A model generated the notes under the pieces. The model made no database searches, had not been told where the DNA came from, and was given only the letters and a program-made list of their open reading frames with translations. Positions 26,794 through 64,000 of a DNA stretch of 64,000 nt are shown piece by piece (within the stretch, counting starts at the first letter, position 1; the number at the start of each line of letters is the position of its first letter). The stretch is taken from contig OZ024743.1 in NCBI GenBank assembly GCA_964016885.1, positions 241,056,001-241,120,000 on the forward strand. The letters are read 5' to 3'. The stretch is from Eledone cirrhosa (taxonomy: Eukaryota). A program made the translations under genes and the position numbers.

Positions 26794-29700
26794 TTAAACC
26801 ATATTTAATGCTGGTCTATATTTTTGAATAAACATATTTTTCTTATTTATTCGTATTTGTTCTGTTGTATTATCAGCGCAAAGATAACATGGGAAGACTT
26901 GGAATTCGGGTGTCTTATTACTTGCGCATATGTCTAGATGTGCACTTAGTGGTATCTCTCTCGTGGTTGGATCTCGTAATTGTTGGCGATGAACTGTCAT
27001 TCTGTTTCTGAGTGTGAGTTTAGTTTGTCCTATATAATCTTCATTGCATCATTTACATTTAATGGCATAAATTAGATTTTTTGATGAGCAAGTGAAGTGA
27101 TTTTTTACAGCAATATTTTGTCCTGATTTAAATGTATACGTGTTGCTTTCAATGAGGTGAGTGCAGGTTCCACAATTAGAGCGACCGCATTTTTTTACAG
27201 TTGGTTGTGGGTCTGTGGTAGGTAATTTGGCATTGGTGAATAATGTTTTTAGTGATTTCGGTTGTCTTTTGCTTTTGATTATTTTGTGTGTCTCAAGGGC
27301 TTTTTTCATTCTTGTGTCTTGTTTCAATTGTGGGATGTTCTTGTGAATAGTGTTGTAAGCTTCCGCATTTCTTGGGTTGTGTGTTGAGATATATGATAGA
27401 ATATTGGACGTATCTTGAATTTGCTTCTGTTTTTGTAATTCATCAATGCCTATTGCTTTAGCCCTTTCTATTCCATTATTTATTAGTAATGGTGGGTACT
27501 GTCTTTCGAGTAGAATTTCCTTTAATTCTTGAAGTCTTTTATTTCGCATTTCATAATTGGAGACAATTGTGCAATTTCTTCTTGCTAGGTTAAAAGGGGT
27601 GTTCGTCTTCGTGTGCTTTGGATGGCTGGAGATGAATAGCAGGTATTGTTTGGAATCTGTTGGTTTGTAGTGTATGTCAGTTTCAATATTTGTGTCTTTT
27701 GTTAAGTTTAAGATGTCCAGAAATGGGAGTTGATCTTGGATGTATTCCATTGTGAATTGGATGTGGTTATTGATGCCGTTAATTAAATTTTTGAAATCAT
27801 TTAGTTGGTCGAGTGTGTGAGACCAAAGAAAGAGACAATCATCCAAGTAGCGTTTCCAATTCTCTGATAAATATTTGTGGAAGTTCAATCCGTATTTTGA
27901 TTTGGACTGTTCATATATCTGGACTTCCAAGTATGCCATGAGTAAGTTGGCATAAGTTGGAGCGGCTTTTGTACTCATCGCAGTCCCCGATATTTGCTTG
28001 TAAGTACTGCCATCGAAATCAAAAAAGTTGTTCTGTAAAATAAATTTTAATCCCTCGGTGATGAAGCTCGGTGTTGAAGCTTTTTTCTATTCTGGGATAT
28101 TTCTCTAGCCAGAATCCTATTGCTTCTAGTCCGTATTGGTGTGGGATCGTTGAGTAGAGATTCACTATATCGAAAGACACAATAATAGTGTCGTTGTTGA
28201 CATGTTTGGGGAGGTGGTTTAAGAGGTCCAGATCGTCTTTTACAAGGCTTGGTATGTGTTTGAAAATTGGTTTTAGTAGTATGTCTATAAAGTTGCTTAG
28301 TCTGTGTGTTTCGCATTGTGGGCCCGCTACAATAGGTATTAATTTAAGGTATGTGGGGTATTGTGTGTTCACGCAGGTTGAGGTGGATTGTTTACAGGCA
28401 TCGTTAATTATTTTACACTTGTGGATCTTCGGAAGTCCGTAAAGGTTGCCGGTTTTGTATTCAAAATGTGTTAAATAATCGCGTTCCTTTTTAGTTCTCT
28501 TCCTGGTATCGACTAATGAATGTGTTTAATCTGGTCATCGTTTTTGATTGTTGGTAGTTTTTTACTCTTTCATAGTAGTTAGTATTTTGTAAGAGAGAGA
28601 ACATAGAATTTTTATATTGTTCAGCATCCATAATGACGACAGTACTTCCCTTGTCCGCTCCTAAATTATAATGTCCGTATTGTTTTTAGTTCATGGATAA
28701 TCTCCCATTCCCTTCGACTCGTGTTGGGTTTGGGTTTAGCTTGCGGTAGTTCATGGTATGGGAAAGTTGCTATGTGGTCACAAAATCTATCCAGAACTCT
28801 GTTTCTACCTTTTGTTGGGTTGTAGCTGATTTTATTCCGTACAATTGATTGGTCGTTATTCTCCTTGTCAAAAAATTCCTCTGTGAGACGTAATTTTCTA
28901 CAGAAGTGTGAGATATCGTTATTTATCTCATTGAGGTTAGAGTATTGTGGCGTTGGTGTGAATTTCAGTCCTTTGGAGAGAATTTTAATTTGTTGGGCTG
29001 AGAAGTTTGTATTTGAAAGGTTGATTATTTTCGGTTTTTCAAAATCGGTTTGTGGCACCGGGTGTCGTGGGTCCTGTAGCCTTGGTCTAAAATATGATTT
29101 TTTTTAATTGTTTTTTCATGGGTATTATTATATCTAATGACATTTCTCCTGTTATTGTGTGGTCTTGTATAGAAGTTTCGGACGTATTGAGGTTCGGTTT
29201 GTTGATGGTCCGGGTTGTAGATTTTGGATCTTGGTGTGGGTTGGGATCTACGATTTAGGAACAGGTTCTGTGTGGGTTGGGGTCTACAGTTTTGGAATAG
29301 GTTTTGTGTGGGTTGTGATCTACGGATCGGGTCCTGTCTTGTGTTGGGGGACATTCGGTTTTTGTTAGTAGGGTTATAGTTTTGTCTATGGGTTCTGGGA
29401 TTATCGACATAGTTTTGCTGGGGGTATGCTGGACGTTTTGTTACTTTTTTTGTTATTTGTTGTGCGTGTGGTGTGTGAGTTTTAGTTTGTTTTAAAAATG
29501 GGTTACCTGTATGTTGTTCATTTTTGAAATCCATTTCGTAGTTTTTGAACCAGGTGGCGTTTTTTCCCCATCGCTGGAGGGATGTTAGTTCTTCATTCTC
29601 ACAATTTTATTTCCAAAGTTTTAAGGTTTTTTCATAGAGTAGGCCTTCAGAGTGCCTTGAGATTTCTGTTTCCATCTGTTGGTTGAGTAACTTGAATTTT

Positions 29701-33819: not shown

Positions 33820-34870
33820 TGTTTAGTCTAAGGGCTGCTTGATCATATAGGTGATTGTAGCGAAAGTTTTATTCCTAGGACTACCTAATCATATAGGTGT
33901 TTTAGTGGCACTTTTAGCTCTAGGGTTTCATGATAATATAGGAGATTGTAACACACTTTTAAACCTAGGGCTGCCCAATCATAGAGGTGATTTAGTGACG
34001 CCTTTAGCCCCAGTCTACTTGATATTATAGATGATTGTAACGAAACCGTTAGCCCATGTATGCCTGATTTTATAAGTACCTGTAACGAAACCTTTAGCCC
34101 TAGATCTGCGTGATTATGTAGGTGATTGGTGCGAAACATTTCGTCCTAGGTCTGCCTGATCATATAGATGATAGTAGCGACAGATTTAGCCCATGGTTTG
34201 CCTGATCATATAGATGATAGTAGCGACAGATTTAGCCCAAGGTTTGCCTGATCAAATAGTTGACTGTAACGACAAATTTAGCCCAAGGTTTGCCTGATCA
34301 AATAGTTGACTGTGACGACATATTTAGCCCAAGGTTTGCCTGATCAAATAGTTGACTGTAACCACATATTTAGCTCAAGGTTTGCCTGATCAAATAGTTG
34401 ACTGTAACGACATATTTAGCCCAAGGTTTGCCTGATCAAATAGTTGACTGTAACGACATATTTAGCTCAAGGTTTGCCTGATCAAATAGTTGACTGTAAC
34501 GACATATTTAGCTCAAGGTTTGCCTGATCAAATAGTTGACTGTAACGACATATTTAGCCCAAGGTTTGTCTGATCAAATAGTTGACTGTAACGACATATT
34601 TAGCCCAAGGTTTGCCTGATCAAATAGTTGACTGTAACGACATATTTAGCTCAAGGTTTGCCTGATCAAATAGTTGACTGTAACGACATATTTAGCTCAA
34701 GGTTTGCTTAAAAACAGAGATGATCGTATCGAAACTTTCATCCATAGGTCTGCTTGATCATATATGTGATTTAGAGAAACGTTTAGCCCCAGGTCTACCT
34801 TATAATATAACTGATTGTAAGGAACGTTTTAGCTCTAGGTCTGCCTGTCATATATGTGATTGCAGCGAAA
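33820..34870. repeat. 46-bp minisatellite with a homogeneous core (34180-34706) and diverged flanks
   Basis: Unit GACATATTTAGCCCAAGGTTTGCCTGATCAAATAGTTGACTGTAAC; period 46 (34271 and 34317). Confidence 0.93.
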
Positions 34871-38835: not shown

Positions 38836-38842
38836 GTATATA

Positions 38843-40940
38843 TATTGTTATACTTGGGGAGGGTCATATTTGTGTAATATTGCCAGAATTAATAACAGAA
38901 CATACTCACTGTTTGGTTGGTTTTCGCTTCTCGCTTCTGTGTCTTTTATATTGGTAATCTAACTTACTCGGTCCTCAATGTTGCCATTGACTGACCGACG
39001 GTCAAAAATAATACAGATACAATATAGACACAAACACATATATATAGTTTATCATAAATCTTTCGTTGCACATCTGCAACATCGTCAGTGGTGTTATATT
39101 ATCCTCCTGTTGTATTGTATGTCTACGCCATTTTTATTCAGTCTGTCTATATATTTATTTATTTATTTACTTGTTTGTTTATTTTATTTTGTCTTCTTTG
39201 CGCATGCGTTTGCGTGTGTGTATAGTGTTATGTTTGCTGTGTGATGGGTGACTAGAGTGTGTTTATGTGCTTGTTGTTATTGTGCTTGTGTATGTATTTA
39301 TTTATTTATTTTATTTTATTTACTTATTTATACTTCTCTTAGGTCAGTGTTGTTTGTTTGGGTGTTGTTGTTATTCTATTCATTCTTTCTGTTTAGCCTT
39401 GGTCTTCTAATTTCTATTTCACTGGCCTCTCTGATTTGCCTATCTGCTGGGTCATTTCTATGTTTAGATATTATTCTAATTTCTATGTTGTCTATGTTAC
39501 CGTCATGTTGTTGTCTAGCATGTTCGTATAGTACTGACCCGTTTTTTCGTCCTTTTAGTTCCCTCCAGTATTGGTCTATCCTTTCACCTATGCTACGAGC
39601 TGTCTCACCTACGTATGTTGTTGTCATGTTTCTGCAGGTACCCTCTGTACATCTTATGCTATAGACTACGTTTCTAGTTTTACAGTTTATCCGGGGGTTC
39701 ACCTTACATATGATACATTTCCTATTGGTACAGTGGGTTTTCTTAAAAGGGTAGGTTTTGCTGATCAGGGATTTTATGGTGGTTCCTGGCTTTTCTACCA
39801 CCTTTATTTTTAAGTGGGTCTTTCTCAGGGCCTTTCTACACTGGTTAGCTAATTTCCCTCCAGGGGTACCGTCCACAAACATGACACTCTGGTATCTCTG
39901 GTTGTCGTACCATGAGGTGGCTTTCCCTATCTTATGTCTAGCCCTATCTAAACTATTCCATGATTTGCTCCTGTATAATGGGCAAATTCCTTTCATGTCC
40001 AGTTCTATGAGGGTCTTATACTTCTCCATGACTCCTTCGTATACTCTGATTCTGTCTCTTTGGTTGTAGCCAGAGAACTGCATGCGATTGATGAAGTGTT
40101 GGATGTGTCTTTCCATTTCTGTTGGGTCGCACATGCGGGACACATTCTTCATCACTCGTACCAAATCTGCGATCAGAATATTAAACTTAGCACTACTGGA
40201 CATTGCTGAGTTTTTGAGTATCAGGTATTTGGAGGCCATGGGTTTAGCATCGTGTGAGTGGAGAATTTGGGCTCTTTTGTCTATAGTGTTAATCCAGAGT
40301 TCTGTGTCTAACACAGGTAGTCTACTGTTAGGGTGTTTGGAAAGGAAGTCGATAGTTACAGTTATACTCTGGTGTATGGAATTAGCTATCTGCTGGATGC
40401 TTTCCATCGTGCTACGTTCTAATTCAAACTTGTTAGTGCTCTCTAGAGGGGGTGTTCTTATAACTATATTTTATCGTCTACATAACGAGAGTACATGATG
40501 AGGTCTATGGAGCTCTCATTAAGGAGATCTTTAAGTCTCCTTTCCCACCATACCATGAAAAGGTTGGCAACATCACCAGCTATGCTGACGCCGATGGCTG
40601 CTCCCTCATTTTGGGTGTAGATCTTCTCGTTAAACTTAAATATGTGGCCCTTTAGGGTAGTTTTGATACTAGCCCCTATTGCATGTGCGACCATTTTTCT
40701 TACCTGATCATTGTTTAGGGGGGTCCGTATAGCTTTGGTCCATCCAATTCACCTTCCCATGGGAGTCTTTTTTGCCATAGAGGTTATGGTGGGGGGGGGG
40801 TCTACCTCTTATAGGTCTAGTAGGGCAGAAACATCTAAGATCATGGCTGTCTAGGTAGTCAGTGTCGTAGGTAAGTCTAAGTAGGAGGTCCACCTCACTC
40901 TCAATGATCATCTCCACACATCTTTTCACAGCAAAATTTT
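38843..40940 (-). mobile_element. Penelope-like element PLE2, 5'-truncated within the RT
   Basis: RT, thumb and GIY-YIG remnants plus a 3' UTR with a hammerhead motif; ends in (TA)n. Confidence 0.88.
39376..40935 (-). pseudogene. PLE2 RT C-terminal part and GIY-YIG endonuclease
   Basis: IYTQNEGAAIG...ANLFM, SRYVDD, LPVLD, KPMAS, SGY, CTNRKCIIC..NC, NVVYSIRC...YVGETARSIGER, REASEI....LN. Confidence 0.9.
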
Positions 40941-41362
40941 GCAAACGCATGCGCAAAGAAGACAAAATAAAATAAAATAAACAAACAAGCAAATAAATAA
41001 ATAAATATATAGACAGACTGAATGAAAATGGCGTAGACATACAATACAACAGGAGGATAATATAACACAACTGACGATGTTGCAGATGTGCAACGAAAGA
41101 TTTATGATAAACTATATATATATGTGTTTGTGTCTATATTGTATCTGTATTATTTTTGACCGTCGGTCAATCAATGGCAACATTGAGGACCGAGTAAGTT
41201 AGATTACTGATATAAAAGACACAGAAGCGAGAAGCGAAAACCAACCAAACAGTGAGTGTGTTCTGTTATTAATTCTGGCAATATTACACAAATATGACCC
41301 TCCCCAAGTATAACAATATTTGTTTCGACACACGATTTCATATAAAAATCCTCGCAAAACTA
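40941..41362 (+). mobile_element. Inverted copy of the PLE2 3' UTR/pLTR
   Basis: Reverse complement of 38843-39213, plus about 45 extra terminal bases, then (TA)n. Confidence 0.9.
41062..41112 (+). ncRNA. Minimal hammerhead motif in the PLE2 pLTR (mirror copy at 39047-39097, minus strand)
   Basis: CTGACGA-T-GTTGCA gatg TGCAAC-GAAA-GATT-TA: perfect 6-bp stem II, one extra U after A9; stem I weak. Confidence 0.65.
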
Positions 41363-41479
41363 ATATATATATATATATATATGTAGTCTTGGAGTCAAGG
41401 TCACTGACATAAACTTTCTATTCATTTAACCGACCGAAACCGGAGAGATTTCCAGAGCCTTGTCTTTCTCTCTCTCTCT

Positions 41480-41510
<31 letters not shown>

Positions 41511-41514
<4 letters not shown>

Positions 41515-44128
41515 ATTAAATAAATGGAAAACTATATTTATAAAACCATATTTATTTCATTATATATATTTCGGGGATATCATATTAACAATATGCTATG
41601 CCTTCATCAGACAAAATACAATATAAACAGTTTTATAGATAAATAGATTCGACATACCGTAATAAACACCGACTTCATTTGAAGAGGTTTACGCTAGCAG
41701 TGAAAATTTTATACAGAGAGAAAGAAAGAGAGAAAAAAGAAAGAAAGACAAAACGAAGAAAAGGAAGAAAAAGAAGAAAAAGAAAAAGAAGAAATGCATG
41801 GAACAAAATAGAGAGATGGAAAGATAGATAAAGCGAAGAGCTTCATGTAAAGAAACAGAAAGAGATATATATATAGAGAGAGAGAGGAAATAGAGATAGA
41901 TACATATATATATAGAAAATTAGGTAGTGGGAGGTCATTTTGAGTAAGTGTATCAATGATACATTTATTTATTTATTTATTTATTTAGCTCAAGTATTAA
42001 TGTAAGGGAGATATATAGAGAAAGAAAAAAATATAGAGAGAGGAAAAAATAGGGAGAGAAAAAATTTAAAAATAGCCAGACATATTCGAGGCGTAAAAAA
42101 CCCTATGTTTTAATGTATTAGTATTTATAAAACTTACACTATATTGTAAATATCAGTATTCCTGAATGAAACAAGTATCCATAATGTGTGAGAATTAATT
42201 ATCTTATGTTTAGTTTTAAAAAAATCATATGTTTATGTGACAGCTACAAACATCCATGCGAATCCAACTGATTCACTCTGCAAACTCTAAGTTACCGGAA
42301 AACATTCTCAATGTGGTATAAAAATTTGAGCGTATTATTATTCCTGTCATTACTCTACAAGATTATCTATCAAGCAGAAATAGAGAGCAGATTTCAATAT
42401 ACTAATAAAAATATATATTATATTATAAACAAAACTAAAAATAAAAAGATAACAATAATAATAATAAGTAAAAATATAGAATAGAAAACTAAAAAAAAAA
42501 ATATTACGAAAGAATATTACATAATAAAAATATTACATATTAAAAATACTACGTATTAAAAAATATTACGTATTAAAAAAATTACATATTAAAGATATTA
42601 AAAATAAAATAAAAAATAAAAAAATATTATAGAATACTACAATACTAAAAAATAAAAATAAAAATAAAAATAAAAATAAAAATAAAAATAAAAATAAAAA
42701 TAAAAATAAAAATAAAAATAAAAATAAAAATAAAAATAAAAATAAAAATAAAAATAAAAATAAAAATAAAAATAAAAATAAAAATAAAAATAAAAATAAA
42801 AATAAAAATAAAAATAAAAATAAAAATAAAAATAAAAATAAAAATAAAAATAAAAATAAAAATAAAAATAAAAATAAAAATAAAAATAAAAATAAAAATA
42901 AAAATAAAAATAAAAATAAAAATAAAAATAAAAATAAAAATGAAAATAAACCACAAAGAACAACCCTTCAAAGTTAATTGACAATATATTGCCAAGTTCA
43001 TTACAAGACAAAGCCAAAAATGATCTATCAAATCACATCTAGCAAAGAACATTTCAAAAAGATTATGATGACCAATTAGGTCTACATATGTTCTTATATT
43101 TAATATAGAAGTTTATCTAGTGTAAGGTTAATTCAAAAAATTTGGAGCATCAGCTTTTAGGGTAGCTTAATTTTTCATGAGGAATGAAAGATTTAGGAAT
43201 CAAAAAATTTATCGGCTAGTTCTCATATAAATATAAATCAAACTAAATATACTACATTTTAAATTTAAATTTATATTTAAACGTTGAGTTTAATCTATGT
43301 TTGCAACAACTGAATAAATTTGTCCGTAGGTTAAGGGAATTTTTAGATTTTAGTATAAAGAATATCTCCTCTGCGCAGAGGTCACATGTCTCAGAGGATG
43401 AATTAAAAGGAATCCCTCTTGAGTCTATATTCCAAGCCGTCGAATATCTAACGTTATCTAGCTTAAGTTGCCAGAGTACGCCTGATAGTGCCGTTGAAGA
43501 TTTTTTACTTGGATCTGTGAAAGAATTCTTGTGGTTATTATAGCGAAGTTTAAATTCCGTCGATGTGGAACCGACGTAGTTAAAAGAATTAGAGTCAGTA
43601 TTAACATTACAATTGTATACTATATTTTTAACTAAGCAGTTGTTATTTAACGGACATTTAGATCTATCTCTACAGTTACATTTGTTAACTTGTATATTAT
43701 TTATGCTATTATCAGTAGGTTTTAAGTTCCTATTATTTATTCTATTAATATTTTGTGCTAAATTTTTGGTGGATGAGTAGGTTAATTTAATTGTATGCCT
43801 ATTGAAGATTGAGTGATACCTATGTGTTCTAGGGAAGCGATTATCAAGAGCTTTGAAAAATAATTTAGCGATGTGGGTTTTAATGTTTAGTGAGAAAGGG
43901 GGGGCAAACCAAATTATGTTCCTAGTTCTATTTCTTTTTTGTCCTTTGGAATTATTGTAATGCTTTCTATTATAGTTGTTAATGTTGTTGCCGTAATTAA
44001 AAAAGTTGTTACTTTGTTTAGTTTGTCTATCATTATCTATGTACACAATCTTATCAGCATATCCTGCCCTAGCTAGTGCATCATTATAGTACTGGGCCTT
44101 TTCGTCAAAAATCTTTCTATTCGACGAG
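41511..44128 (-). mobile_element. PLE3 inverted arm (thumb, GIY-YIG and 3' UTR)
   Basis: Reverse complement of 44201-46582; ORF 43252-44145. Confidence 0.92.
41553..41618 (-). ncRNA. Type-I hammerhead motif, PLE3 left arm
   Basis: Mirror of 46474-46539. Confidence 0.75.
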
Positions 44129-44143
44129 ACCCTAACCCTAACC
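44129..44143 (-). repeat. Telomeric (TTAGGG) x ~2.5 at the palindrome centre
   Basis: ACCCTAACCCTAACC lies between the two PLE3 arms. Confidence 0.75.
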
Positions 44144-46670
44144 ACCCCAGATCTGTCAAAAACACTATAGTAAACTCAGTCCAAAAACGTATCTCTAGGA
44201 TCTCGTCGAATAGAAAGATTTTTGACGAAAAGGCCCAGTACTATAATGATGCACTAGCTAGGGCAGGATATGCTGATAAGATTGTGTACATAGATAATGA
44301 TAGACAAACTAAACAAAGTAACAACTTTTTTAATTACGGCAACAACATTAACAACTATAATAGAAAGCATTACAATAATTCCAAAGGACAAAAAAGAAAT
44401 AGAACTAGGAACATAATTTGGTTTGCCCCCCCTTTCTCACTAAACATTAAAACCCACATCGCTAAATTATTTTTCAAAGCTCTTGATAATCGCTTCCCTA
44501 GAACACATAGGTATCACTCAATCTTCAATAGGCATACAATTAAATTAACCTACTCATCCACCAACAATTTAGCACAAAATATTAATAGAATAAATAATAG
44601 GAACTTAAAACCTACTGATAATAGCATAAATAATATACAAGTTAACAAATGTAACTGTAGAGATAGATCTAAATGTCCGTTAAATAACAACTGCTTAGTT
44701 AAAAATATAGTATACAATTGTAATGTTAATACTGACTCTAATTCTTTTAACTACGTCGGTTCCGAATCGACGGAATTTAAACTTCGCTATAATAACCACA
44801 AGAATTCTTTCACAGATCCAAGTAAAAAATCTTCAACGGCACTATCAGGCGTACTCTGGCAACTTAAGCTAGATAACGTTAGATATTCGACGGCTTGGAA
44901 TATAGTCTCAAGAGGGATTCCTTTTAATTCATCCTCTGAGACATGTGACCTCTGCGCAGAGGAGATATTCTTTATACTAAAATCTAAAAATTCCCTTAAC
45001 CTACGGACAAATTTATTCAGTTGTTGCAAACATAGATTAAACTCAACGTTTAAATATAAATTTAAATTTAAAATGTAGTATATTTAGTTTGATTTATATT
45101 TATATGAGAACTAGCCGATAAATTTTTTGATTCCTAAATCTTTCATTCCTCATGAAAAATTAAGCTACCCTAAAAGCTGATGCTCCAAATTTTTTGAATT
45201 AACCTTACACTAGATAAACTTCTATATTAAATATAAGAACATATGTAGACCTAATTGGACATCATAATCTTTTTGAAATGTTCTTTGCTAGATGTGATTT
45301 GATGGATAATTTTTGGCTTTGTCTTGTAATGAACTTGGCAATATATTGTCAATTAACTTTGAAGGGTTGTTCTTTGTGGTTTATTTTCATTTTTATTTTT
45401 ATTTTTATTTTTATTTTTATTTTTATTTTTTAGTATTGTAGTATTCTATAATATTTTTTTATTTTTTTTTTATTTTTTATTTTATTTTTAATATCTTTAA
45501 TATGTAAATTTTTTAATACGTAATATTTTTTAATACGTAGTATTTTTAATATGTAATATTTTTATTATGTAATATTCTTTCGTAATATTTTTTTTTTTAG
45601 TTTTCTATTCTATATTTTTACTTATTATTATTATTGTTATCTTTTTATTTTTAGTTTTGTTTATAATATAATATATATTTTTATTAGTATATTGAAATCT
45701 GCTCTCTATTTCTGCTTGATAGATAATCTTGTAGAGTAATGACAGGAATAATAATACGCTCAAATTTTTATACCACATTGAGAATGTTTTCCGGTAACTT
45801 GGAGTTTGCAGAGTGAATCAGTTGGATTCGCATGGATGTTTGTAGCTGTCACATAAACATATGCATTTTTTAAAACTAAACATAAGATAATTAATTCTCA
45901 CACATTATGGATACTTGTTTCATTCAGGAATACTGATATTTACAATATAGTGTAAGTTTTATAAATACTAATACATTAAAACATAGGGTTTTTTACGCCT
46001 CGAATATGTCTGGCTATTTTTAAATTTTTTCTCTCGCTATTTTTTCCTCTCTCTATATTTTTTTTTTCTTTCTCTATATATCTCCCTTACATTAATACTT
46101 GAGCTAAATAAATAAATAAATAAATAAATGTATCATTGATACACTTACTCAAAATGACCTCCCACTACCTAATTTTCTATATATATATGTATCTATCTCT
46201 ATTTCCTCTCTCTCTATATATATATATCTCTTTCTGTTTCTTTACATGAAGCTCTTCGCTTTATCTATCTTTCCATCTCTCTATTTTGTTCCATGCATTT
46301 CTTCTTTTTCTTTTTCTTCTTTTTCTTCCTTTTCTTCGTTTTGTCTTTCTTTCTTTTTTCTCTCTTTCTTTCTCTCTGTATAAAATTTTCACTGCTAGCG
46401 TAAACCTCTTCAAATGAAGTCGGTGTTTATTACGGTATGTCGAATCTATTTATCTATAAAACTGTTTATATTGTATTTTGTCTGATGAAGGCATAGCATA
46501 TTGTTAATATGATATCCCCGAAATATATATAATGAAATAAATATGGTTTTATAAATATAGTTTTCCATTTATTTAATATTGTAAATATACTCCAAATATT
46601 TGTCGAGTGCTTTTATATCAGTTATAAATATTTACTAGTTGTAACCCAACAATTTTAAATATAACTTTAC
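44143..46670 (+). mobile_element. Penelope-like element PLE3 (Nematis-like), 5'-truncated at the thumb
   Basis: HPRSVKNTIVNSVQKRISRISS, AGY, RNIIWFAPPFS, CNCRDRSKCPLNNNC, IVYNC...YVGS..FKLRYNNH, CDLC.EE, LNLR...CKH; 1.6-kb 3' UTR ending in (TA)n. Clade assigned from memory of motifs. Confidence 0.9.
46474..46539 (+). ncRNA. Type-I hammerhead motif in the PLE3 3' UTR
   Basis: TATTTTGT-CTGATGA-AGGCATAGCATATT gtt AATATGATATCCCC-GAAA-TATATA-TA-ATGAAATA: 8-bp stem I (two G-U pairs), interrupted stem II, palindromic stem III, AUA triplet. Confidence 0.8.
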
Positions 46671-46853
46671 ATATATATATATATATATATATATATAAAG
46701 AGAGAGAGAGAAAGACAAGGCTCTGGAAATCTCTACGGTTTCGGTCGTTTAAAGTCGGTACCTTTCATTCCAGTGCACATTGTGACATAACAAAACGGGT
46801 AGAGACATATTATGCCTTTAGGCAAATTACACAAATATATTTTTCTCACATCT

Positions 46854-48585: not shown

Positions 48586-51500
48586 TTCTTTGAGTCTCAG
48601 TCATTGATGTTATTTAACTGGAAAGTTTGTTGAAATGAATATCAAGCCGTTACCTGCAGCCTCAGATATTCAGGACGTATCGGAGGGTTCTTGCTGTTCC
48701 CAGCAAGCATGGCTTTTGAAGTGATCCAAAAAGCGTAGCTAGACTAATCTTCTTTAACCATCCTTGGAAACTTATTGAGATAGTACCTAGTGCGCCTATG
48801 ACAATCGGGACGACCTTGACTTCATGGCAGTTCCAAATCCTTTTTAAATCCCACTTTAAATCCTGGTATCGGTTAATTTTACCCGTCTCCTTTTCTTGCA
48901 CTCTCGTGTCAAATGGGCAGGCTACATCTACAATCAGGCACGATCTTTTTTCCTTGTCCAAAACCACCAGGTCAGGCCTATTGTGTTCCAGTATCTTATC
49001 GGTCTGTATCCTAAAATCCCACCTTCACCTGATCGTTTTCTATCCTCGACTCTGGCTTATGCTCATACCACTTCTCAGAATGTGGTAAATTGTTTACTTT
49101 GCATAGGTGCCAGCGGATCACCCTGCCCATTACATCATGTCTCCAGCTTTTATAGTGAGTCTGGGCTAGGTGTTTACACTCGGATACAATGTGAGCCACA
49201 GTCTCCTCTCTATCTCCACAGATCCTACACAGTGGGCTAACCTCCTCCTTGTAAATATGGTGTTTCACCCATTTCGTTCTGAGGGCCTGCTCTTGTGCAG
49301 CCATTAGCATTCCTTCTGTAGCCTTTTTAAGGTCTCTTTTAACCAGTTCCATGTCTGTGGATCTCTAAATTTAGTTTTCTTAAAGAAGGTACAATGAAGG
49401 GATTTTTCATGAAGGTTGCTCTTCCTCCTTGTTATTTCCTCCTTGGATATCCCCTGGTCCATTGTCTTCTCCTTCATTACAATTTTCAGCATTGGCTCCC
49501 TACTCTCAGTCACGTATTTGTGCAGGTTGTTTTTCTCCATCTGAACACAGTCCTCTATGCTGATAAGACCTCTTCCACCTTCAGATCTCCTTAAGTAGAG
49601 TCTATCGACATTACTCCTCTTGTGGAACATGTTGTAGATAGTCAATAGCTTCCTAGTTTTCCTATCCATTTCTGTTTGTTCAGCAACATTTCAGAATTCC
49701 CGCAATATATCTAATAATAGACACAGCTCGGGAATTCACTGCACTTATGACATTCCTACTATTTAGACATGATTTTAATACGCTCCTTACTCTCCTAATG
49801 TACTCAGAGCTTATCAATTCATTCATTCTTTTGTTCTTGATGTCATCTGCCTCCAGAACACCTAAATAATTGTATCCTTCTTCAGTGTCAATTTCCTTTA
49901 TCATCTCACCTGTTGGTACCTGGATTCCGTTGCTTCTGCTCAATGTATTCCTCTTCCTCACTAGGACTCCACACTTATTAATACCAAATTGTAGACATAT
50001 ATCATTGCTGAAAATATGGACAGTGTCAACAAGTACATCCAACTCGTTCTCACTCTTCCCAAAGAGTTTAAGATCGTCCATGAAGAGGAGGTGGTTGATG
50101 GTAAGCTCTCCTTTTCCCAACTTGTATCCTGCTCTCACTTTTTGCAATATCATGGTCAGGGGTATCAGGGCAAGGAAAAACATCAGAGGGGACAAACTAT
50201 CTCCCTGGAAGATACCTCTCTTGATCTTCACGCCTCCCAGGGTTTCTCCACTCGGTATTAACTCTGTTTTCCAGGACATCATACTTTTGCTCAACAACTG
50301 TCTGATGTTATCTGCCACCTTGAAGATCTCTAGGCTTTTGGTTATCCAAGAACGAGGTACCATGTCAAATGCCTTTTTGTAGTCTATCCATCCCATGGCA
50401 AGACCAGTGTGTCTCCTCCTGCTCATTACCATCTTGTCAATAAGTAACTGGTCATTTGTATCACGGAAGTTTTTCGGCATCCTTTCTGTGCGTCCGGTAA
50501 CAAGTTGTTTATGTGGAGATGATGGTAGATTTCCTCAGACACAATGCGTGTTAACAGTTTCCACATTACGGACAGACATGTGATAGGTCTATAGTTGGTA
50601 ACATCATTACCCTTGATTCGGTCTTTCATTACCAGAACTGTGGTACCTTTTGTCAACCACTCTAGTACCTCACCCCACATCAAGCAGTCATTGAACATGG
50701 TTGTCAGTTTCGGGTGGAGGGATGTTATATTTTTAATCGAATACCCCTGCACACCATCTGGGCCTGGTGATTTCCAGCTGGTTAGTTTTTTGGCCTGCCC
50801 TTTAAGAGTTTCAACTGTGATACACAAATCAGTTTGTTGGTGTGCTTGTTCACTAATATCCTTTTGTACTGTCTCAATCCACACTGCCTGACTATTATGT
50901 TCAACATCCTGCTCCCATATTCCTCTCCAGAATCTCTTAGTCTGTTCCGCCTCAGGTATCAAGTCGTTGCGTCTTTCTTTCCCTTCAAGCTGTTCAAACA
51001 ACGTCTTCTGGTTGTTGTCAAATATGTGGTTCTGTCTATACTGACTGACTTTGCTCTTATACCGCCTAATCTTTGCACTTTTTGCTACAATGCATTGCTT
51101 CAGTTCCTCTATGATAATATTTAGCTTTTTCCCCCTAGTTTTGTACTTTATTTCCAATCTATTTTTAGTGTCTATGTTTTGTAATGTCCCATTCAGTAGG
51201 GACACAAGCTTTCCAATGTCTTTTCTCATTTCCTTGATTTGACCATTCACTCGTTTCTTTCACCAAGGTTCTGATCTTTCTTGTTTGTTGTTTCCTCTCC
51301 TTTTTATGCCAAGTAATTTCCTCACAGTATTTGCTGTTGCTTTGCGGATATTGTTGCATTGGTGAAGGTTCCTCGCCTCAAGGTATGAGATGACTTTGTT
51401 TACCTTAGGTGTTGGTTCTTTTAACTTTTTCTTGTCTACAAATCCTAGGTTCATAGGTTTCCACTATCATTGTTCCTTTCATCTACCACTAAGTTCAGGA

Positions 51501-54016: not shown

Positions 54017-54473
54017 TTATTATTATTATTAATATTATTATTATTATTATTATTATTGAATGCCATGGTTGACGGAGGCTCGGCTCTGTAAGGTACAGTA
54101 ATTTTTAACCGCTATAACAATTGTAAATTGTTTAAAACTTTAACCAAATTGTAGATAAAATCACCCTCCTCCTCGTGAGACGGGTCTTTCTGTCCGTTAT
54201 TTGGCCCTTCGGGGTTAAATAACCGCTTATTGGGGTTTTGTGCCCAATATTCATTTTAAACCAAAAAAAAAAAAACATGGCTACAAAAAAGAATTTTCAC
54301 AAGTCACTCCCACTCATTCCGTCTTCTTCTTCCTCAATCGTCACTACATCAGAGAGAAGATTGTCTCTCCCCCCCCCCTTCTCTAAATGTGGCTCTCTCC
54401 CTCCCGTCTCTTTCGCAAGCGACGCCAGTAAAGAAAAAGAAAAATATAGTTTCTGATAGTTTCCTCGAGCACA

Positions 54474-54666
54474 TGCAAATCGAGGAACATTTCTCCACGA
54501 CGACGACAACGACGAATGTGTGCGGTAAATACGGAAAGCCATTTCATTCCTCTGACGTCATGAATAATAGCAGTAGCAGCCGTAATAACAGCAGCAGCAG
54601 CAACAGTGACAAGGAAAACAATAGTAGTAGCCGCAACAGCATCAGCAGCAGCATAAACAACACCAG

Positions 54667-54698
<32 letters not shown>

Positions 54699-56436
54699 GC
54701 AGCAGCAGCAACAATAACAACAACCACAGCAACAGCGGTGGTGGCAGTCGTAGTACCAGCAGCAACAACAAAAGTAACAGCAGCTCTGACGACAACAACA
54801 ACAACAAGAAAGAAAAACCAATCTCGTTTGCAGGTATCGCAAAGAACCTGGAAAACATCCTTATAACAAATGAGGAATTACAGGAAGCAAAGAAGATGGT
54901 GACGAAAACCGGACACCGAGCTATCTGCAAGGCAGCCGAAACATTTTTCGAAACCCAACAGCACTGTACGGTCACGTACCGTACAGTAATCACAAAATCC
55001 CGTAGGGGTGAAAGAGCCACAGAGGCTCAAATACAAAAAGCCTTAGGGTCTGTGTGGCAGCGGAAAACGCATATCACCCGAGGCAATAAATATGCCACCG
55101 TAGACGTGCTTTTTGCCACACCACAGGAGGCAAAGGCTCAATCCTTAGTGACCCTAAGGAGCGAGGAAATGGTGTTGGTGCCCTCCTACTGCGGGCAAAA
55201 AATTATGAGGGTCAAAATGGACCACGTCCCCCGGGATGGTCCCTTCTTGGCTGGCCGCGTCTGTCCTCGTCGGAATCGAGGACAAAACAACTGTACTGCA
55301 AGTACAGAAAAAGGTAAGAGAAGATTGGGTCGGCACCTCCATTGAGATGTTAATCCAAACCAACCAGGAGTGCATCGAAGCTATCACGGATGTGATAGAC
55401 TTCGATAACGGCACTCAACTGCCCATAAGTGTTGAGGGCAAACGCCCGAAATGCTTTCGCTGTGGATCGAAGACTCACCCCAGGGCCTTCTGCAATGAGA
55501 AGACCCTGAGAAAAGAGAAAACCCCCTTCCTTCCGAAACCGGCTCCACTGCTACCAGCAACAGGACAAGCGGCAACCAGGAACGATAGGTCCGTGGCACC
55601 CATACCCACGCCACGGAAATCAAGAACAGCAGCAGCATTGGAAGTATTAACAATAACAACAGTAATACCAACTGCAGCTGCAACAGAGACTCCACTGCAA
55701 ACATCACCAATAACAACAAGTGAAAGAGTGGAGCTGGTACCCCTCCCCGACCTCACAGAATCAGACATGGAGTGTGAGGTGGGAGATGGCAAAAGGTCGC
55801 AAGAAGGCACAAACGCAGAAGCAGCGCATCGTCGCCTTCGAAAAGGGAGGAAAGAAACGAAAATAGGGTAAAGGCTACTGCAAAGAGACTGACAGCAGCA
55901 ACACCACCAACACCATTACCACCCACACTAGCACCACCATCACCACCGGCGACAACCACACCGCCAACAAAAATAACACCTTCAACACCACCACCACCAC
56001 AAGCACCAACATCGCAAACACAACAACAAAACACACACACCCAGCAACAACGACAAGAAAACAGCAGAACCACACCCACCCCCAGAAAAACAAATGTACG
56101 GCAATAAATACACACAACAAGAAACTAATGACTTACATAATTGAACACACAAACATTTCACAGCACGACTACATAATACCAGCAACAATCAAAACACCAA
56201 CGAACATAAGACTGGTAAGAATAGCACAGAAACAATACACAAACACTAAAACGAAATTCCCCAACGCAGTTGGTGATTTCAGAGACCTAGGAGGGACTCT
56301 CAACCGGAGAGTATATTCGGACATACACATAGAAGAGCCGACGACCAGCCGAAGGGACGATTCAACGGTCCCTTCACCAGACGATCAAGTGAAAAGGGAT
56401 GGAGAAACCATCCTTCTTCTACGAAAAGTAAGGTAA
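54474..56436 (+). pseudogene. LINE ORF1 (Ser/Asn-rich N-terminus, RRM-like core, CCHC knuckle), frameshifted
   Basis: ORFs 54389-55345, 55236-55871 and 56128-56436; CFRCGSKTHPRAFC; collinear with the copy 2 ORF1. Start codon uncertain. Confidence 0.8.
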
Positions 56437-56470
56437 GTGGTCTTTCCCATCTTTTCCACTCCATTTCAAC

Positions 56471-59294
56471 ATGACCTCATTCAGAATAGGCACCATAAAT
56501 GCGCGTGGCTTGGGGTCGTCATAGAAGCAGGGCCACCTGCTCAACGACCTCAGGTCACTAAACATAGCGAGACCAGAATCTCCTAAGCACCGGCCTTCGC
56601 ACCGATCTTCGGCGGCTACGATGTGTACGCATCTCCCAGCCGTCCGGGATCGGGGGGAGAAGTTGCTGTGCTTTTTCTGTTAGGTTTGGATCTCGCCATA
56701 CGGGCCATCTTCCTGGACCCAGAATGTAAGTTGGTGGTGCTATCCGTGACCAGCGGAGACGGGAAAGCTTTCAGGCTAGTGGCCGTCTATGCCCCGACAG
56801 GAGCAGGGCGGCCTGATTTCTTTCGGCGTCTGGAGACCTTTCTTGGAACGTCCTGCTCTTTAGTGTTAGTGGGCGACTGGAACGGGATCTTAGATGCACG
56901 CTGGCACTGTGTGGGACCAGCGGATAGGGGAGGAGGGTGCAAGAGCCTCACCAACCTGCTCAGGCGTTTTGAACTGTCTGACTGGTACCGATTGGATTTC
57001 CCGAATGTGCCAATGTGGACTTGGACAAATCGCATATGGTCATCCAGATCATATCTAGATAGAGTATTTTGTAGGGAAATAGATAGGTCTAGCATCGGCT
57101 GTCCACAATTCAAGATAGTCAGCTACACGGACCACAAATTCGTGATCTGTGTGCTTGACTTAGATAGGCTTCATAGACGAGGACCCGGCTACTGGAAGCT
57201 AAACGCGTCCTTACCAGCGCGCAAGGCCTACAGAGACCGGATTAGCGAACAAGTTAAGTGGGCGTTGACGGGGGCCATCGTCAACAAGTGGTGGTTTGCT
57301 CTGAAAAGAGCAATTAGAATAGAGTCGATTAGGTTTAGTAAGGCTTTAGCAATAGAGAAAAATAGAGCAGATGGAGAATTAGTTAGAAAATTAGACGAGG
57401 CGCTTAGCAAAGGCATCGCGACCGACGTACTTGCGGCGAAATTGGCCCTTGAACAATTTTTCAATGCAAAGCACGAAGACTGCGTTGTCAGAGCTAGGGT
57501 GCGTGCTCTCCGACACGAGGGGAGGAAAGCCGTTCAATGGCCTCGAGTGGCGGAAGCTTTTCAGCGACACCTCGCTCAGTTGTTCGGGGGCAGCGGCGGC
57601 CGGATCGAGGGATGGACTTTAGTGTCTACCTCGACGGACTGCCGCGGCTCTCGGCCACTGAGGTGGAGTGTTGCGAATAGCTGATAACAGCCGCTGAAGT
57701 ACGGGAGGGAATGACTAGCTGCACAAGGGGTAAATCGCCGGGTTTGGATGGTCTGCCCTATGAACTTTACGTACAGATGCCAGACTTGTTCGGAGGCCTC
57801 TTGGCGGACGTCTACTGCAACCGGCAACAGAACGGGAGAATTCCCAGCTCTGTGAGCCGAGGAGCTGTGGCGCTGCTGAGAAAGGTTCCGAACAAGGTGG
57901 ATAACATAGATAATTTCAGGCCCATAACTCTGCTAAACACAGAGTTCAAGATTTTGGCAAAGATGCTAGCAAAGCGGTTGGCGCTTGTCGTTGGCGGGCT
58001 GGTGGGAGAGGCGCAGACGTGCGCCATTTCCGACAGATCCATCCACGACAACCTCCACCTCATGCGATACATCGTAGAGAGGGTAGCTAGGGAACCTGGC
58101 ATGGGTGGGTCCTTGAACAATTTAGATCAGTCGAAAGCTTTCGATAGGGTCGACCATAGTTACCTAGCGGCAGTCCTGAGGGCGGCTGGCTTTGGACCCG
58201 TCTTCAGAGGCTGGATCGCTGCCATGCACAGCGACATCTGCTCTGTGGTGAGAGTGAACGGTCACCTGTCGGAACCGTTCAACATCATGCGCTCGGTCCG
58301 CCAAGGATGTCCCCTCTCGTCCCTCTTGTACGTATTGACTCTCGAGCCATTACTGCACAAACTGGAGACGTTGAGGGGAGTCCCGCGCGAACTAGGATGC
58401 GGAAGATCCGTGTCAGCATATGCGGACGATGTCACCGTAGTGGTGTCGAACGCCAAACACATCGAGGCGATCGGCACTACACTAAGAGAATACGAAGCGG
58501 TGACAGGAGCAATGATCAACCAGGAAAAGTCAGTGGGCCTGCAGCTCGGCACCTGGAGAGGCAGGTCCATGCCGTCCAACAGCGTCGTCGGACGCTGGAC
58601 GGACGGACCGGTTAAATTGCTAGGGGTCTGGTTCGGTCCGGACCTCCAGACGGACAAAAACTGGGACGAGGTGACGAGCAGGGTGGCTTCTCTCACCCAG
58701 AAATGGGCGGAGAGGAAGCTATCCCTGAAAGGTCGAGCGGAGGTGGCTAACGCGTACATCGCGTCTGTCATCTGCTACCGCCTGACCGTCGTACCTTGTC
58801 CTAAGCCCCGCCTGACTGCGCTGGAGCGTTTGCTCTTTCGCTTTTTGTGGAAGGGACGCGCTCCGATGGTCAGGCGGTCCATCGGCTGTCAACACCCGCT
58901 ACGTGGAGGGCTGGGAATGTCGTGGCTGATGATGCGAAGACACGCGCTCAGGCTACGACATCTCCACCTCTTCCTCGACGGTGATCAGGTGTGGTCGCCG
59001 TTTGCTCGACACGTCTTTCCCCAGCTCGTCTCCTTGACGGAGTTGCAGTCCTGGCTCAAGCGAAGACCGAGAGGGAGCGCTTGGAGACTGGTATGTCTTC
59101 AGGCGCTCACAGCCCTCGACCAATCGGGATATGTGATCGGTGGAAACTCCACCTTGGAGTTCTATAGAAGATTAGTGGAGGGGAAGAGCGACGACGTACT
59201 TGGAGAAACTCTAGGCGTCGACGAAATTCAACTAGCCAATCTCTTCGGAAGGACTTTCGGTCCGGGGCCTATGGACAACTTCCAGAAATCCCTG
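56471..59294 (+). pseudogene. LINE ORF2 (APE endonuclease and RT), frameshifted
   Basis: MTSFRIGTINARG, VYAP, GDWN, SYLDRVF, TDH, YWKLN, KSPGLDG, FRPITLLN, DQSKAFD, RQGCPLS, YADD, GGLG. Confidence 0.93.
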
Positions 59295-59469
59295 GATATC
59301 ACAACATGGATGTTACAAGAAAGAGAGAGAGCGCTGTCAGACAACACACAGAGAGAGGGAGACTTTATCAGCATGTCAACAAGACAGCGTACCAGCGGAG
59401 GTAAATATAAATGAAAATATTACAAAGTAAAAAAAGATTGTTACAGATTTAAAATTACCAAATATTTCT

Positions 59470-61323
59470 AACACATCGACACCAACAATAACACCAACAA
59501 CAACACCAACAACAACAACACCATCAATAACAACAGCAACAACAAAAATAACAGCGGTAAAGTCGAGAACGACAATAACAATGACAATAACAACAGCCAC
59601 AACAACAATAATAGTAGGAACAGTATCAACAAAAACAACAATAATAACAACAGCCACAATAACAGTAACAACAGCAATAGTATCAACGAAAACAACAACA
59701 ACAACACCAACAACTGTACCAGCGAAAACAACAACAATGACACTGATACCTGTAATAGCGACCTCAGCACCACCAGTAAGACCAGTAGCGGCAGCAATAG
59801 AGGTGCTGCTGAAAAAGGAACCACTTTCTTTGCAGGTGTCGCCCGAAATATCAAGACAGTGTTAGTCACAGAGGAGGAGATGGCAGTCGCAAGGGCCATG
59901 GTGACAAGATGCGCAAATAGAGTTTCCCTGAAACCTCCACCCGATTTTTTCAAGGACCAGCAGCTACGGACGGTGACTTACCGCACCGTAAGAAAAATCT
60001 CACATCAAGTGGAGAGAGCCACGGAGGCTCAATCCAAAAGGCCTTGGGGTGCGTCTGGGCACGCAAAACCCACATCACCCGAGGCAGAAAGTACGCCACA
60101 TAGACGTACTTTTCGCCACCCCCCAGGAAGCAAAGTCTCTCTCTTTGGAAACCCTAAAGACTGGGGATATAGTCTTGGTGGCCTCCTACTGCGGGCAGAA
60201 AATTGTGAGGGTCAAAGTGACCCAGGTCCCACCCGACGTGCCCATACCTTGGCTGGCCGCGTATGTCCTTGCTGGAATTGAGAACAGGGCGACCATGCTG
60301 CAAGTAGAAAAAATAGGGAGAGAGATCTGGTCAGGTATAGGCATGCAAATGCTTATACAAACTGACCAGGAATGTATCGAGGCTATCCCCGATATCATAG
60401 ACATCGAGGAAGAACTCCAACTCCCTATAAGTGTAGAAGGAAGACGGCCAAAATGTTATCTCTGTGGGTCGAAGGGTCACCTCAGGGCCTTTTACCCGCA
60501 GAAGACAGCGAAGAGAGCCCCTCTCCTTCCAATACCTGGTCTGCTGCTACCAAGAGCAGGACAGGTAACAAACGAAGAAGCCCCTTCCACGGTGAGTAGG
60601 AGGGCAACGTCCGTAGCACCCGTACCAAGGCCACGGATAACTAAAGCAGCATCATCAGTAGCGGCAACACCAATAGCTACATTTGAAGTAGCTACACTAG
60701 CAACAAAATTGCCGAAGAGGGCTCCACTACCACCACCAACAGCCGTGGAGCACATACCCCTGACAGACGCCACAGAATCCGACATGGAGTTTGAGGCGGG
60801 AGTGAAGTGGCAAACGGTCTGCCACAAAAAAAGAAAAAAGAAAAAACCCTTAGATTCACCCTCCAAAAGCGAAGGCATACAAAGAGGGGTAAAGGCAGCA
60901 AGGAAACTTGCAGCAACACCACCACCATCACCACCACAAACACCAACAACGCAAACACAACAAGACACACACACCAAAGAGCAACAAGAAGAAAACAGCA
61001 ACAAAATCACCCCTCCCCCCAAAAAGTACACAGCCATAAACATGGCAAAAAATGAACTCATACAATATATAAAGCAGCACACAGACATCACAGAAAAAAA
61101 CTACTACACCCCACCAACACCAAGAACTCTCCCGACAAACATAAGCATCATCGAAATCTCAATAGAACAGTACAAACCTTTAAAACAAAAATTCCTCAAC
61201 GCAGTTGGAGACTTCAGAGGGACGGTTACCAAGAGGATATACACTGACATCCACTTGGAAACACCCATGACCAGCGAAAAGGACGGTTCTACTGTCCCTT
61301 CACCACACGAACAAGGTAAGTGA
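59470..61323 (+). pseudogene. LINE ORF1, copy 2
   Basis: Asn/Ser-rich start, VTYRTV, DVLFATPQEAK, LPISVEGRRPKCYLCGSKGH, TESDME, NAVGDFRG. Start uncertain. Confidence 0.8.
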
Positions 61324-61354
61324 CCCTTCTCACTTGCCCCGTTTCTCATCCAAC

Positions 61355-64000
61355 ATGGCTGTACTCAGAATAGGCAGTATAAATGCACGTGGCCTGGGGT
61401 CATCTTGGAAGCAGGGTCACCTGCTCAATGACCTCAGGTCAATAAACATAGATGTGGTGGCCATCAATGAAACCAGAATCTCCGAAGCACGAGCCTTCGC
61501 ACCGATCTTCGGCGGCTACGATGTATACGCATCTCCCAGCCGTCCAGGATCGGGGGGATGGGTTGCCGTCCTTTTTCGGAGAGGCTAGGATCTCGCGATA
61601 CCGGCCATCTTTCTGGACCCAGAAGGTAAGTCGGTGGTGCTGGACGTGACCGGCAGCGAAGGCAATGCTTTCAGGCAAATAGCCGTCTACGCCCCAACAG
61701 GGGCAGGACGGCCAGATTTCTTCAGACGTCTAGGGATATTTCTTGGAACGTCCCGTTCTTTAGTGTTAATGGGCGACTGGAACGGTATCTTGGATGCACG
61801 CTGGGATCGTGTGGGGCTAGTGGATAGGGGAGGAGGGTGCAAGAGCCTCACCAACCTGCTCAGACGTTTTGAACTGTCTGAGAGGTATCGACTGGATCAC
61901 CCGAATGTGCCAATGTGGACATGGACAAACCGCATCGGGTCAACCAGATCGTATCTCGATAGGGTATTCTGCAGAGAACTAGATAAGGCTAGTATAAGTT
62001 GTCCACAATTTAAAATAGTCGACTACACAAACCACAAATTTGTGATCTGTGAGATCAACATAGACAGACTTCATAGACAAGGGCCTGGTTACTGGAAGCT
62101 GAACGCGTCTTTCCCGGAGCGTAAAGCCTACAGATTAGCGTATTAGTTAAGTGGGCGTTGACGGGAGCGTCGTCAACAACAGGTGGTGGTTCGCCCTGAA
62201 AAGGGCAATTAAAGTAGAGTCGATTAGGTTTAGCAAAGGAGTAGTGATAGAGGAAAATAGAGTAGAGGGAGAGCTAGTCAGAAAGCTAGAAGAGGCGTTT
62301 AGGACAGGCACGCAGCCGACGTGCTTGCGGCGAGATTGGCACTCGACAATTCTTCAACGCAAAACACGAAGGCTGCGTTGTCAGAGCTAGAGCGCGTGCT
62401 CTGAAACACGAGGGGACAAAAGCCGTCCAATGGGCCCGGTTGGCAGAGGCGCGACGTGGCAACAAAGCCACAATTCGGTCTTTGTCTGACCAAAACGGGT
62501 GCGTGATTCTCGAACCCGAGCGGATATGTGAAGCTTTTCAGCAGCACATTGCTGAACTGTTCGGGAGCGGCGGTGGCCCGGATCGGGGCATGCACTTCAG
62601 TGCATACCTCGACGGAGTGCCTCGGCTCTCGACGACCGCAGCACAGTGTTGCGAAAAGCCAATAACAGCCGGTGAAATACGGGAAGCGATGGCTAACTGC
62701 ACAAGGGGTAAAGCGCCAGGTTTAGATGATCTGCCCTACGAGCTTTATGCATTTATGCCGGACTTGTTTGGTGATCTCTTGGCAGACGTCTACTGAAACT
62801 GGCAGCAGAACGGGAGCATTCCCAGTTTTGTGAGCCGGGGAGCAGTAGCGCTGCTGAGAAAAGACCCGAACAAGGGTGATGTTATCGATAATTTCAGGCC
62901 CATAACCCTGCTAAACGCAGAGTTCAAGATTTTGGCCAAGGTGTTAGCAACGAGGTTGGCGCTTGTCGTCAAAGGTCTGGTGAGAGAGGCGCAGACATGC
63001 GCCATTCCGGGCAGATCCATACACGACAACCTCCATCTCATGCGATACATCATAGAGAGGGTGGTTAAGGAACCTGGCACGGGTGGGGCCCTGATCAACT
63101 TGGATCAATCCAAAGCATTCGATAGGGTCGACCATCGGTACCTGGCGGCGGTCCTCGAGGCAGCCGGTTTCGGGCCCGTTTTCAGGGGTTGGATCGCAGC
63201 AATGTACAGCGACATCTGCTCAGTTGTGAGGGTGAACGGTCTCCTGTCGCAGCCGCTCAGCATCATGCGCTCAGTCCGCCAGGGTTGTCCCCTCTCGTCC
63301 TTCTTGTACGTATTAGCTCTCGAGCTGTTACTGAACAAACTGGGGGCGATGATGGGCGTCCCACGCGAACTAGGATGCGGGAAATCCGAGTCGGCTTACG
63401 TTGACGACGTCACCGTGGTGGTGTTGAGCACCAGACACGTCCAGATCCTCGGCGCCGCTCTCAAGGAATACGAAACGGTGACAGGAGCAAAGATAAACCA
63501 GGAAAAGTCGGTGGGCTTGCAGCTCGGCATCTGGAGAGGCAAGTCCATGCCGTCCGACAGCGTCGTGGGCGTTGGACGGACGGACCGGTTAAATTGCTCG
63601 GGGTTTGGTTCGGACCGGACCTCCAGATGGAGAAAAACTGGAACGAGGTGACGAGCAGAGTGGCCTCCCTCACCCAGAAATGGTCTGAGAGGAAGCTGTC
63701 CCTGAAAGGCCGGGCGGAGGTGGCGAATGCGTACATCGCATCCGTCATCTGCTACCGCCTCACTATCGTCCCATGCTCCAGCCCAAATCTCACCAAAATG
63801 GAGCGCCTGCTCTTCCGCTTTTTGTGGAAGGGACGCGCTCCAATGCTCAGACGATCCATCTGCTGTCAACACCCGTTGCGTGGAGGACTGGGCATGCCAT
63901 GGCTGATGATGCGCAAACATGCGCTGAGGCTGCGACATCTCTGGTGCTTCCTTGATGGTGAACGGGTGTGGTCGCCGTTCGCCAGGCACGTTTTCCCACA
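61355..64000 (+). pseudogene. LINE ORF2, copy 2 (APE and RT), with stops and frameshifts
   Basis: MAVLRIGSINARG, INET, GDWN, SYLDR, YWKLN, FRPITLLN, DQSKAFD, RQGCPLS, YVDD. Confidence 0.93.

Follow-up and report, generated by a model that had tools for sequence, protein, structure and literature searches.

The 64,000-nucleotide stretch of the Eledone cirrhosa genome analysed here (contig OZ024743.1, positions 241,056,001 to 241,120,000; hereafter, the window) contains a 5.33-kb palindrome built from two inverted, 5'-truncated copies of a Penelope-like element (PLE), with a telomere-like tract at its centre. An earlier note, made from the letters of the window alone, had described a palindrome of about 5.3 kb with such a tract, and its reading of the letters was confirmed. 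A genome-wide search of the 3.0-Gb assembly yielded near-identical copies of the family. The seam between the two arms holds a real but single 8-nt insert, probably a patch made by telomerase, within a PLE architecture that is already known. The arms span 41503-44129 and 44138-46589, with a tail ending at 46672, and the 5.33 kb include a duplicated flank. The centre of the palindrome, 44129-44143, reads ACCCTAACCCTAACC, or GGTTAGGGTTAGGGT on the minus strand. The following features meet at the seam:

44130..44137, minus strand: junction insert of 8 nt, GGTTAGGG on the minus (cDNA) strand, in register with the native GGTTAG, missing from family copies and left over when both arms are extended exactly.
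44138..44143, minus strand: native GGTTAG seed (sense CTAACC, S-N-H codons), the final bases of the right-arm cDNA, at consensus position 1404.
44138..46589, plus strand: right arm, a 5'-truncated putative Hydra-clade PLE with the reverse transcriptase (RT) thumb, CxCX5C linker, GIY-YIG-type endonuclease (EN), stop at 45078 and an AT-rich 3' untranslated region (UTR)/pseudo-long terminal repeat (pLTR).
41503..44129, minus strand: left arm, an inverted 5'-truncated copy without a tail, covering the consensus between position 1467 and the pLTR end.
44196..44201, plus strand: native TAGGAT, whose complement in the left-arm cDNA is the likely annealing site for an added TAGGGT.

Family copies natively read CTTTAACT-CTAACC-ACCCC (N-S-N-H-P), the other copies showing ...GTCAACTTTAACTCTAACCACCCCAGATC (V-N-F-N-S-N-H-P-R), three of them with a single-base variant (28 further loci listed). 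Positions 44138-44149 are, therefore, native coding sequence (S-N-H-P). Because the left arm follows the consensus without a mismatch through 44129, only the 8 nt at 44130-44137 are foreign. These bases, CCCTAACC, are made up of CC and a tandem duplicate of native CTAACC. They extend the native GGTTAG end of the cDNA in exact telomeric register, to a total of 15 nt, made up of 6 native nt, one A shared with the left arm and 8 junctional nt. A wholly native tract is ruled out because the family has CTTTAACT upstream of CTAACC, and a wholly foreign one of 14-15 nt because of the native and shared bases. The earlier note had expected a consensus without the tract and had named a native tract as the finding that would undo its proposal: the 8 bases are indeed absent from the family, while the remainder, CTAACC-ACCCC, belongs to it. 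The junction sequence occurs once in the assembly. The added bases create TAGGGT, which matches the TAGGAT at 44196-44201 at five of six positions, as had been observed before, with one G-T wobble. One 'joint' reported in sequencing reads proved to be native sequence, and an apparent master junction shared at one site was an artefact of using the palindromic locus as the reference.

On its cDNA strand, the right arm ends on GGTTAG and then continues GGTTAG-GG-T. GGTTAG is the point at which a round of a vertebrate-type telomerase ends. Telomerase-type addition to a G-ending cDNA end is our best reading of the 8 bases, as the earlier note had proposed, albeit for the entire tract, of which 6 nt are native. 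PLE RT copying telomerase RNA is indistinguishable from telomerase on this sequence. Telomeric repeat-containing RNA (TERRA), also put forward in that note as a template, does not fit: it is G-rich and could only template a C-rich addition to the cDNA of the other arm, not a G-rich addition to this strand. Of the 160 arm ends, no other has a 6-nt seed, and no other continues in register for more than 3 nt (9 nt here). A genome-wide search at this seed gave four matches, among which a changed upstream base marks only this junction, the others being one single-nucleotide polymorphism and two unrelated loci. In null simulations, a 15-nt tract arose at 2e-6 per junction with random local copies, and at 3e-7 to 5e-7 with microhomology-guided copying at 1-3% error.

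A short interspersed element (SINE) that natively carries CCCTAACC offers a second view of such seeds. It has in-register extra repeats at 6 independent loci versus 847 intact, whereas for a non-telomeric control hexamer within that SINE the figures are 2 duplicated versus 10,416 (odds ratio 37, Fisher p 5e-6). Five of the six extended loci carry at least two extra units, and one is a long array. That array, a CCCTAA/CCTTAA tract tandem-amplified with the SINE end, lies on C25 at about 9.067 Mb. Among the loci of this high-copy SINE (L246-L256, L212), L212 shows a single extra unit, placed at a deletion junction. Insertion of in-register repeats at breaks has been published as a telomerase signature in mammals (PMC2246262, PMC7215372), known from short interstitial telomeric sequences (ITS). 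The seam likewise has exact in-register repeats at a break (6-nt seed, 9-nt continuation, with family copies as the empty state), but its 2.5 repeats in total, 8 nt of them added, lie below the published search threshold of at least four repeats.

The wider family shows that telomerase addition is not its route to inverted PLEs. From loci L001-L182, 80 inversion and 22 truncation junctions were called, leaving out loci of other families (L094-L103, L112-115, L117-118, L120 and L122) and junctions whose longer arm begins past consensus position 2380. With subfamily variants allowed for, the inversion junctions comprise 39 with microhomology (34 of them of 1-4 nt), 6 blunt and 35 with inserts; microhomology at the other junctions ranges from 1 to 10 nt. 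The 15-nt telomeric tract of this seam is the longest and exceeds chance for the family: none of the remaining 79 inversion junctions has more than 8 nt, and none of the 22 truncation junctions more than 5 nt. Tracts of this kind thus occur at 1/80 inversion and 0/22 truncation junctions. The enrichment at family junctions predicted by the earlier note was not borne out, and its idea of a specific route to inverted PLEs comes down to a single case. Eight genome-wide searches for CCCTAACC up to 500 nt upstream of family anchors, covering consensus positions 1-2375 and 2459-3699, found no second insert; they need exact anchors and detect only additions containing this 8-mer. They screened approximately 700 arm ends, a rough figure scaled from a chromosome-1 sample (110 ends among about 95 of 608 anchor matches).

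Several candidates from these searches were discarded. In one search, 27 of 36 CCCTAACC matches near family anchors, and in another 23 of 24, are internal subfamily variants with fixed spacing; the other 9 of the 36 do not run into family sequence as listed. A second native seed, at position 813, gave 147 matches, the first 100 listed sharing one variant, and all 20 that were inspected are an internal subfamily variant. L120, L121 and L236 are not junction inserts. As a separate observation, L069/L168, L071 and L129 have perfectly symmetric centres, with both arms stopping in a short native palindrome such as the 10-nt TACTATAGTA; if any joins are truly hairpin or symmetric, these are the strongest candidates.

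The arrangement of the arms bears on how the palindrome formed, and the outer features of this insertion are:

46590..46672, plus strand: one-sided tail of 83 nt, equal to the beginning of the next tandem unit.
41483..41510, unstranded: left (TA)n target.
46671..46697, unstranded: right (TA)n target.
41425..41482, minus strand: inverted duplicate, about 58 nt, of the right flank 46698-46753, with 2 substitutions.
46482..46537, plus strand: hammerhead-type core motif (CTGATGA...GAAA) in the pLTR, with a mirror copy at 41555-41610 on the minus strand, located by motif search only.

We examined 61 long loci, 20 of them picked as known inversions, and dropped 15 for a missing outer end. In all 46 remaining complete head-to-head insertions, exactly one arm terminates at the pLTR end, while its partner reaches the tail end, 75-87 nt beyond. 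Nesting was scored in 40 pairs, 6 of the 46 being complex or tied. The tailed arm is the longer one in 20 pairs and the shorter one in the other 20, and the arms are non-nested in 20 of the 40. A fold-back copy must nest in its template, so half of the pairs cannot be cDNA fold-backs: snap-back of one cDNA is refuted as the family's mechanism. Over 20.5 kb in 20 pairs, the two arms have 218 non-consensus bases in common and 47 differences, indicating that both derive from one source. In L124, L127, L132, L138, L159 and L161, either arm, tailed or untailed, may exceed one unit, which points to multi-unit or circular RNA templates. In the simplest model we infer, the two ends of the cut target each prime a cDNA, at two fixed sites; the cDNAs terminate independently of each other, and the centre is closed by host end joining. 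A PLE from Anolis is reported to cleave and extend both target strands in vitro (PMC11167929), and the inverted copy and one-sided tail have already been published for PLEs (PMC8557442, PMC3846280).

Inverted duplications of the target flank adjoin the untailed arm, extending about 58 nt here and about 35 nt past the TA run in the non-nested L181. At the present locus, the right flank copy continues into an older repeat, and the left one is, therefore, derived. The primers of both arms may have been copies of one DNA end. Within this single insertion, a (TTTTTA)n run at 42599-42950 counts about 59 units in the left arm versus about 7 in the right arm.

Starting from the observed architecture, native seed and rare in-register insert, we propose that two separately primed cDNAs were joined end to end at this seam after a telomerase patch, a reading to which we assign a probability of roughly 60%. 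Both target 3' ends in the cut (TA)n would prime reverse transcription on RNA of one source, one at the tail end and the other at the pLTR end. Both cDNAs would halt independently, here at consensus positions 1404 and approximately 1462-1467. Telomerase would then add GGTTAG, translocate and add GG(T). The new end, TAGGGT, could anneal to the ATCCTA of the other cDNA (five of six positions, with the G-T wobble), fill-in would fix the G, and the arms would be sealed by microhomology end joining. The seam is proposed to be an incidental repair scar rather than a step of the element's cycle.

A number of points weigh against telomerase. There is one event only, at a locus selected out of a very large scan. 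Duplicating the 6 nt CTAACC necessarily yields a telomeric tract, and the seam can be written as a plain CTA-microhomology join plus one T>C and one such duplication. Eighteen other arm ends with seeds of 3-5 nt have no addition. The null models are simple and custom-made, and the SINE control is imperfect, given its 2-nt versus 3-nt internal repeat, older copies and possible slippage. Telomeric tracts of 15 nt standing alone exceed the composition controls only modestly (3 on C1 versus 0, 9 and one 365-match cluster genome-wide). A search of the genome for the TERT gene came back blank, as did its own controls, and reads from none of four public runs (0/4), which are probably from other individuals or species, span the seam. 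Finally, the family's joins resemble end joining that is mediated by polymerase theta (TMEJ): besides the 39 microhomology junctions, 13 of the 26 short inserts (3-45 nt; 9 of the 35 lie outside this range) match their own flanks over at least 8 nt, versus a mean of 3.0 and a maximum of 9 when transplanted. L119, rejected as a telomeric insert, builds a 10-nt telomeric tract, AACCCTAACC, from native pieces by microhomology alone.

Much of this agrees with local templated end joining, in which CTA annealing and aborted synthesis would duplicate CTAACC with one T>C error. Telomere likeness would then be coincidental because CTAACC is a rotation of CCCTAA. The inserts of L123, L131 and L062, each a native continuation with one substitution near the seam, point the same way, and iterative priming is a published TMEJ signature (PMC4032859). 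Yet this course requires two or three separate slips, all in telomeric register, and its simulated frequency of 3e-7 to 2e-6 per junction compares poorly with the number of arm ends screened; the telomeric SINE seeds were also extended far more often than their control. We regard local copying as possible but unlikely. Fold-back, as the earlier note had it, would have the telomerase-extended, aborted cDNA snap back about 60 nt upstream on itself and template the inverted arm. This copy agrees with it in two respects: the untailed arm (1467) is nested within the tailed arm (1404), and the right flank is duplicated, inverted, on the left side. Self-priming has also been suggested to produce PLE palindromes, but with an antisense template (PMC3846280). 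Apart from the non-nested half of the pairs, every nested case would require such a copy to halt at the pLTR end, with about 83 nt of template left; the non-nested L181 also bears an inverted flank duplication, and the family has no second telomeric junction. Fold-back is, thus, improbable, and conceivable for this copy alone.

Less probable still is an error of assembly or reads in the middle of the palindrome, or a plain TA-microhomology join altered by two subsequent point mutations (RNA editing included). Two minus-strand A>G changes would indeed turn a plain join into the tract, and no read support was obtained. However, the family diverges from its consensus by only 0.32% (29 of 8,998 sites over six copies, one of them T>C), making two later point mutations unlikely, and RNA editing was rejected as an origin of both A>G differences, as the arms show no A>G cluster. 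The ends are asymmetric in the manner typical of the family and the arms differ at 4 of 898 sites, unlike a read chimera. We, thus, retain telomerase addition to one of two separately primed cDNAs as the preferred account of the seam.

The element is assigned on its motifs to a putative young Hydra-clade PLE; an initial Poseidon label was dropped on the same motif evidence. Its consensus unit is 3,855 nt long, with an open reading frame (ORF) of 737 aa and an AT-rich 3' UTR of 1.5 kb. An exact family 20-mer has 608 matches in the assembly. The features listed for the Hydra clade of C-terminal EN+ PLEs (Craig et al. 2021, PMC8557442) are largely found here. The ORF carries RWR at aa 37 and DKT at aa 118, in line with the RWK-type motif and the DKG-to-DKT change of the Hydra clade, and also YRDD. 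The CxCX5C linker is CNCRDRSKC at aa 596; the C-terminal EN is of GIY-YIG type, with IVY...YVG at aa 615 and one Cys, and has neither CX2-5CxxC nor CCHH; CxxC (CDLC, aa 694) and CxH (CKH, aa 721) lie near the EN end. (TA)4 or longer follows both ends in 43 of 46 complete insertions, in line with the (TA)n targets of the clade. The 3.9-kb unit exceeds the length generally given for the clade, under 3 kb, which is a tendency and not a strict criterion, and the tail of about 83 nt is longer than the 30-40 bp of Naiads and PLEs in general (PMC8557442). The part of that paper used here describes no telomeric junction insert for Hydra-clade PLEs. A Pfam search of the PLE protein gave no match; its 104 homologues include many with PF26215 and two named ones from Argonauta. 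The hammerhead core motif is present in each pLTR by pattern, with no Rfam match, and is absent from the minimum-energy fold.

Head-to-head products are reportedly formed also by L1 twin priming (Ostertag and Kazazian, in the summary given by PMC2246262), in which both target ends are said to prime. The PLE model shares these traits with it, but the fixed starting points of the PLE arms lie 75-87 nt from each other, the sequences of the arms overlap, and either arm can be longer than one unit. Telomere addition to truncated ends is routine in the EN-deficient PLEs Athena and Coprina (PMC3846280), where repeats are likewise placed on the 5'-truncated end (the cDNA 3' end) in the same polarity, ending the chromosome. 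The present family is EN-bearing and its locus internal, at 241 Mb on a 379-Mb contig, and its addition is one event of 8 nt, closed off by a second arm. Short ITS at double-strand breaks (Nergadze 2007, PMC2246262; PMC7215372) share exact units in register with 1-8 native bases and restored chromosome continuity; here, however, only 8 bases were added, whereas the 2007 search used four full repeats, and the break end would be retrotransposon cDNA rather than chromosomal DNA, in an invertebrate host. TMEJ (PMC4032859) shares with the family the dominance of 1-5-nt microhomology and flank-templated inserts, though the insert at this seam is harder to explain by flank copying than the others. 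The full-text literature searched, mostly non-subscription and with the original 2005-2007 PLE papers outside it, held no telomeric inserts at central junctions of EN-bearing PLEs.

TTAGGG arrays are plentiful in this genome (41,132 overlapping 48-mer matches), interstitial among those listed. Large degenerate ones lie on C1 at 217.8-218.1, 208.56 and 315.28 Mb and on C2 at 241.9-243.2 Mb; those in the longest chromosomes are possibly old fusion points. Elsewhere in the window, two further PLE-like ORF remnants occupy the minus strand at 27049-29606 and 39376-40470, the latter between inverted repeats (38842-39213 and 40941-41319) and adjoining the PLE insertion. Remnants of non-LTR retrotransposons lie at 49680-51259 (minus strand) and 54260-63651 (plus strand), with RVT_1 matches at 49683-50534 and 57681-59411, as two related ORF1/ORF2 copies in tandem. 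A 53-bp satellite (about 210 copies) and minisatellites of 39, 54 and 46 bp occupy 3-11011, 11133-11734, 16863-18072 and 33831-34862.

The weight of the seam is limited, as it is one 8-base event in an already published architecture; more reusable are the findings that neither telomerase nor fold-back is the family's route, and a SINE seed test that is scalable. If telomerase made the seam, the 3' end of the PLE cDNA was a free DNA end before the halves joined, which, if true, fits two-ended priming and host end joining as the origin of the unexplained inverted PLE structure. Telomerase action at breaks, known from mammals, would then be seen in an invertebrate as well, and on an intermediate of retrotransposition. 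The sole junction found on a GGTTAG seed was extended, and SINE seeds were extended 37-fold above control. We tentatively suggest, as a possibility below even odds, that cDNA 3' ends of EN-bearing PLEs stay free in the germ line for a time sufficient for telomerase to extend any GGTTAG stop, and that telomerase patches internal breaks at telomere-like words genome-wide. If so, telomerase would, in an invertebrate, routinely compete with its own sister enzymes at the intermediates of their retrotransposition.

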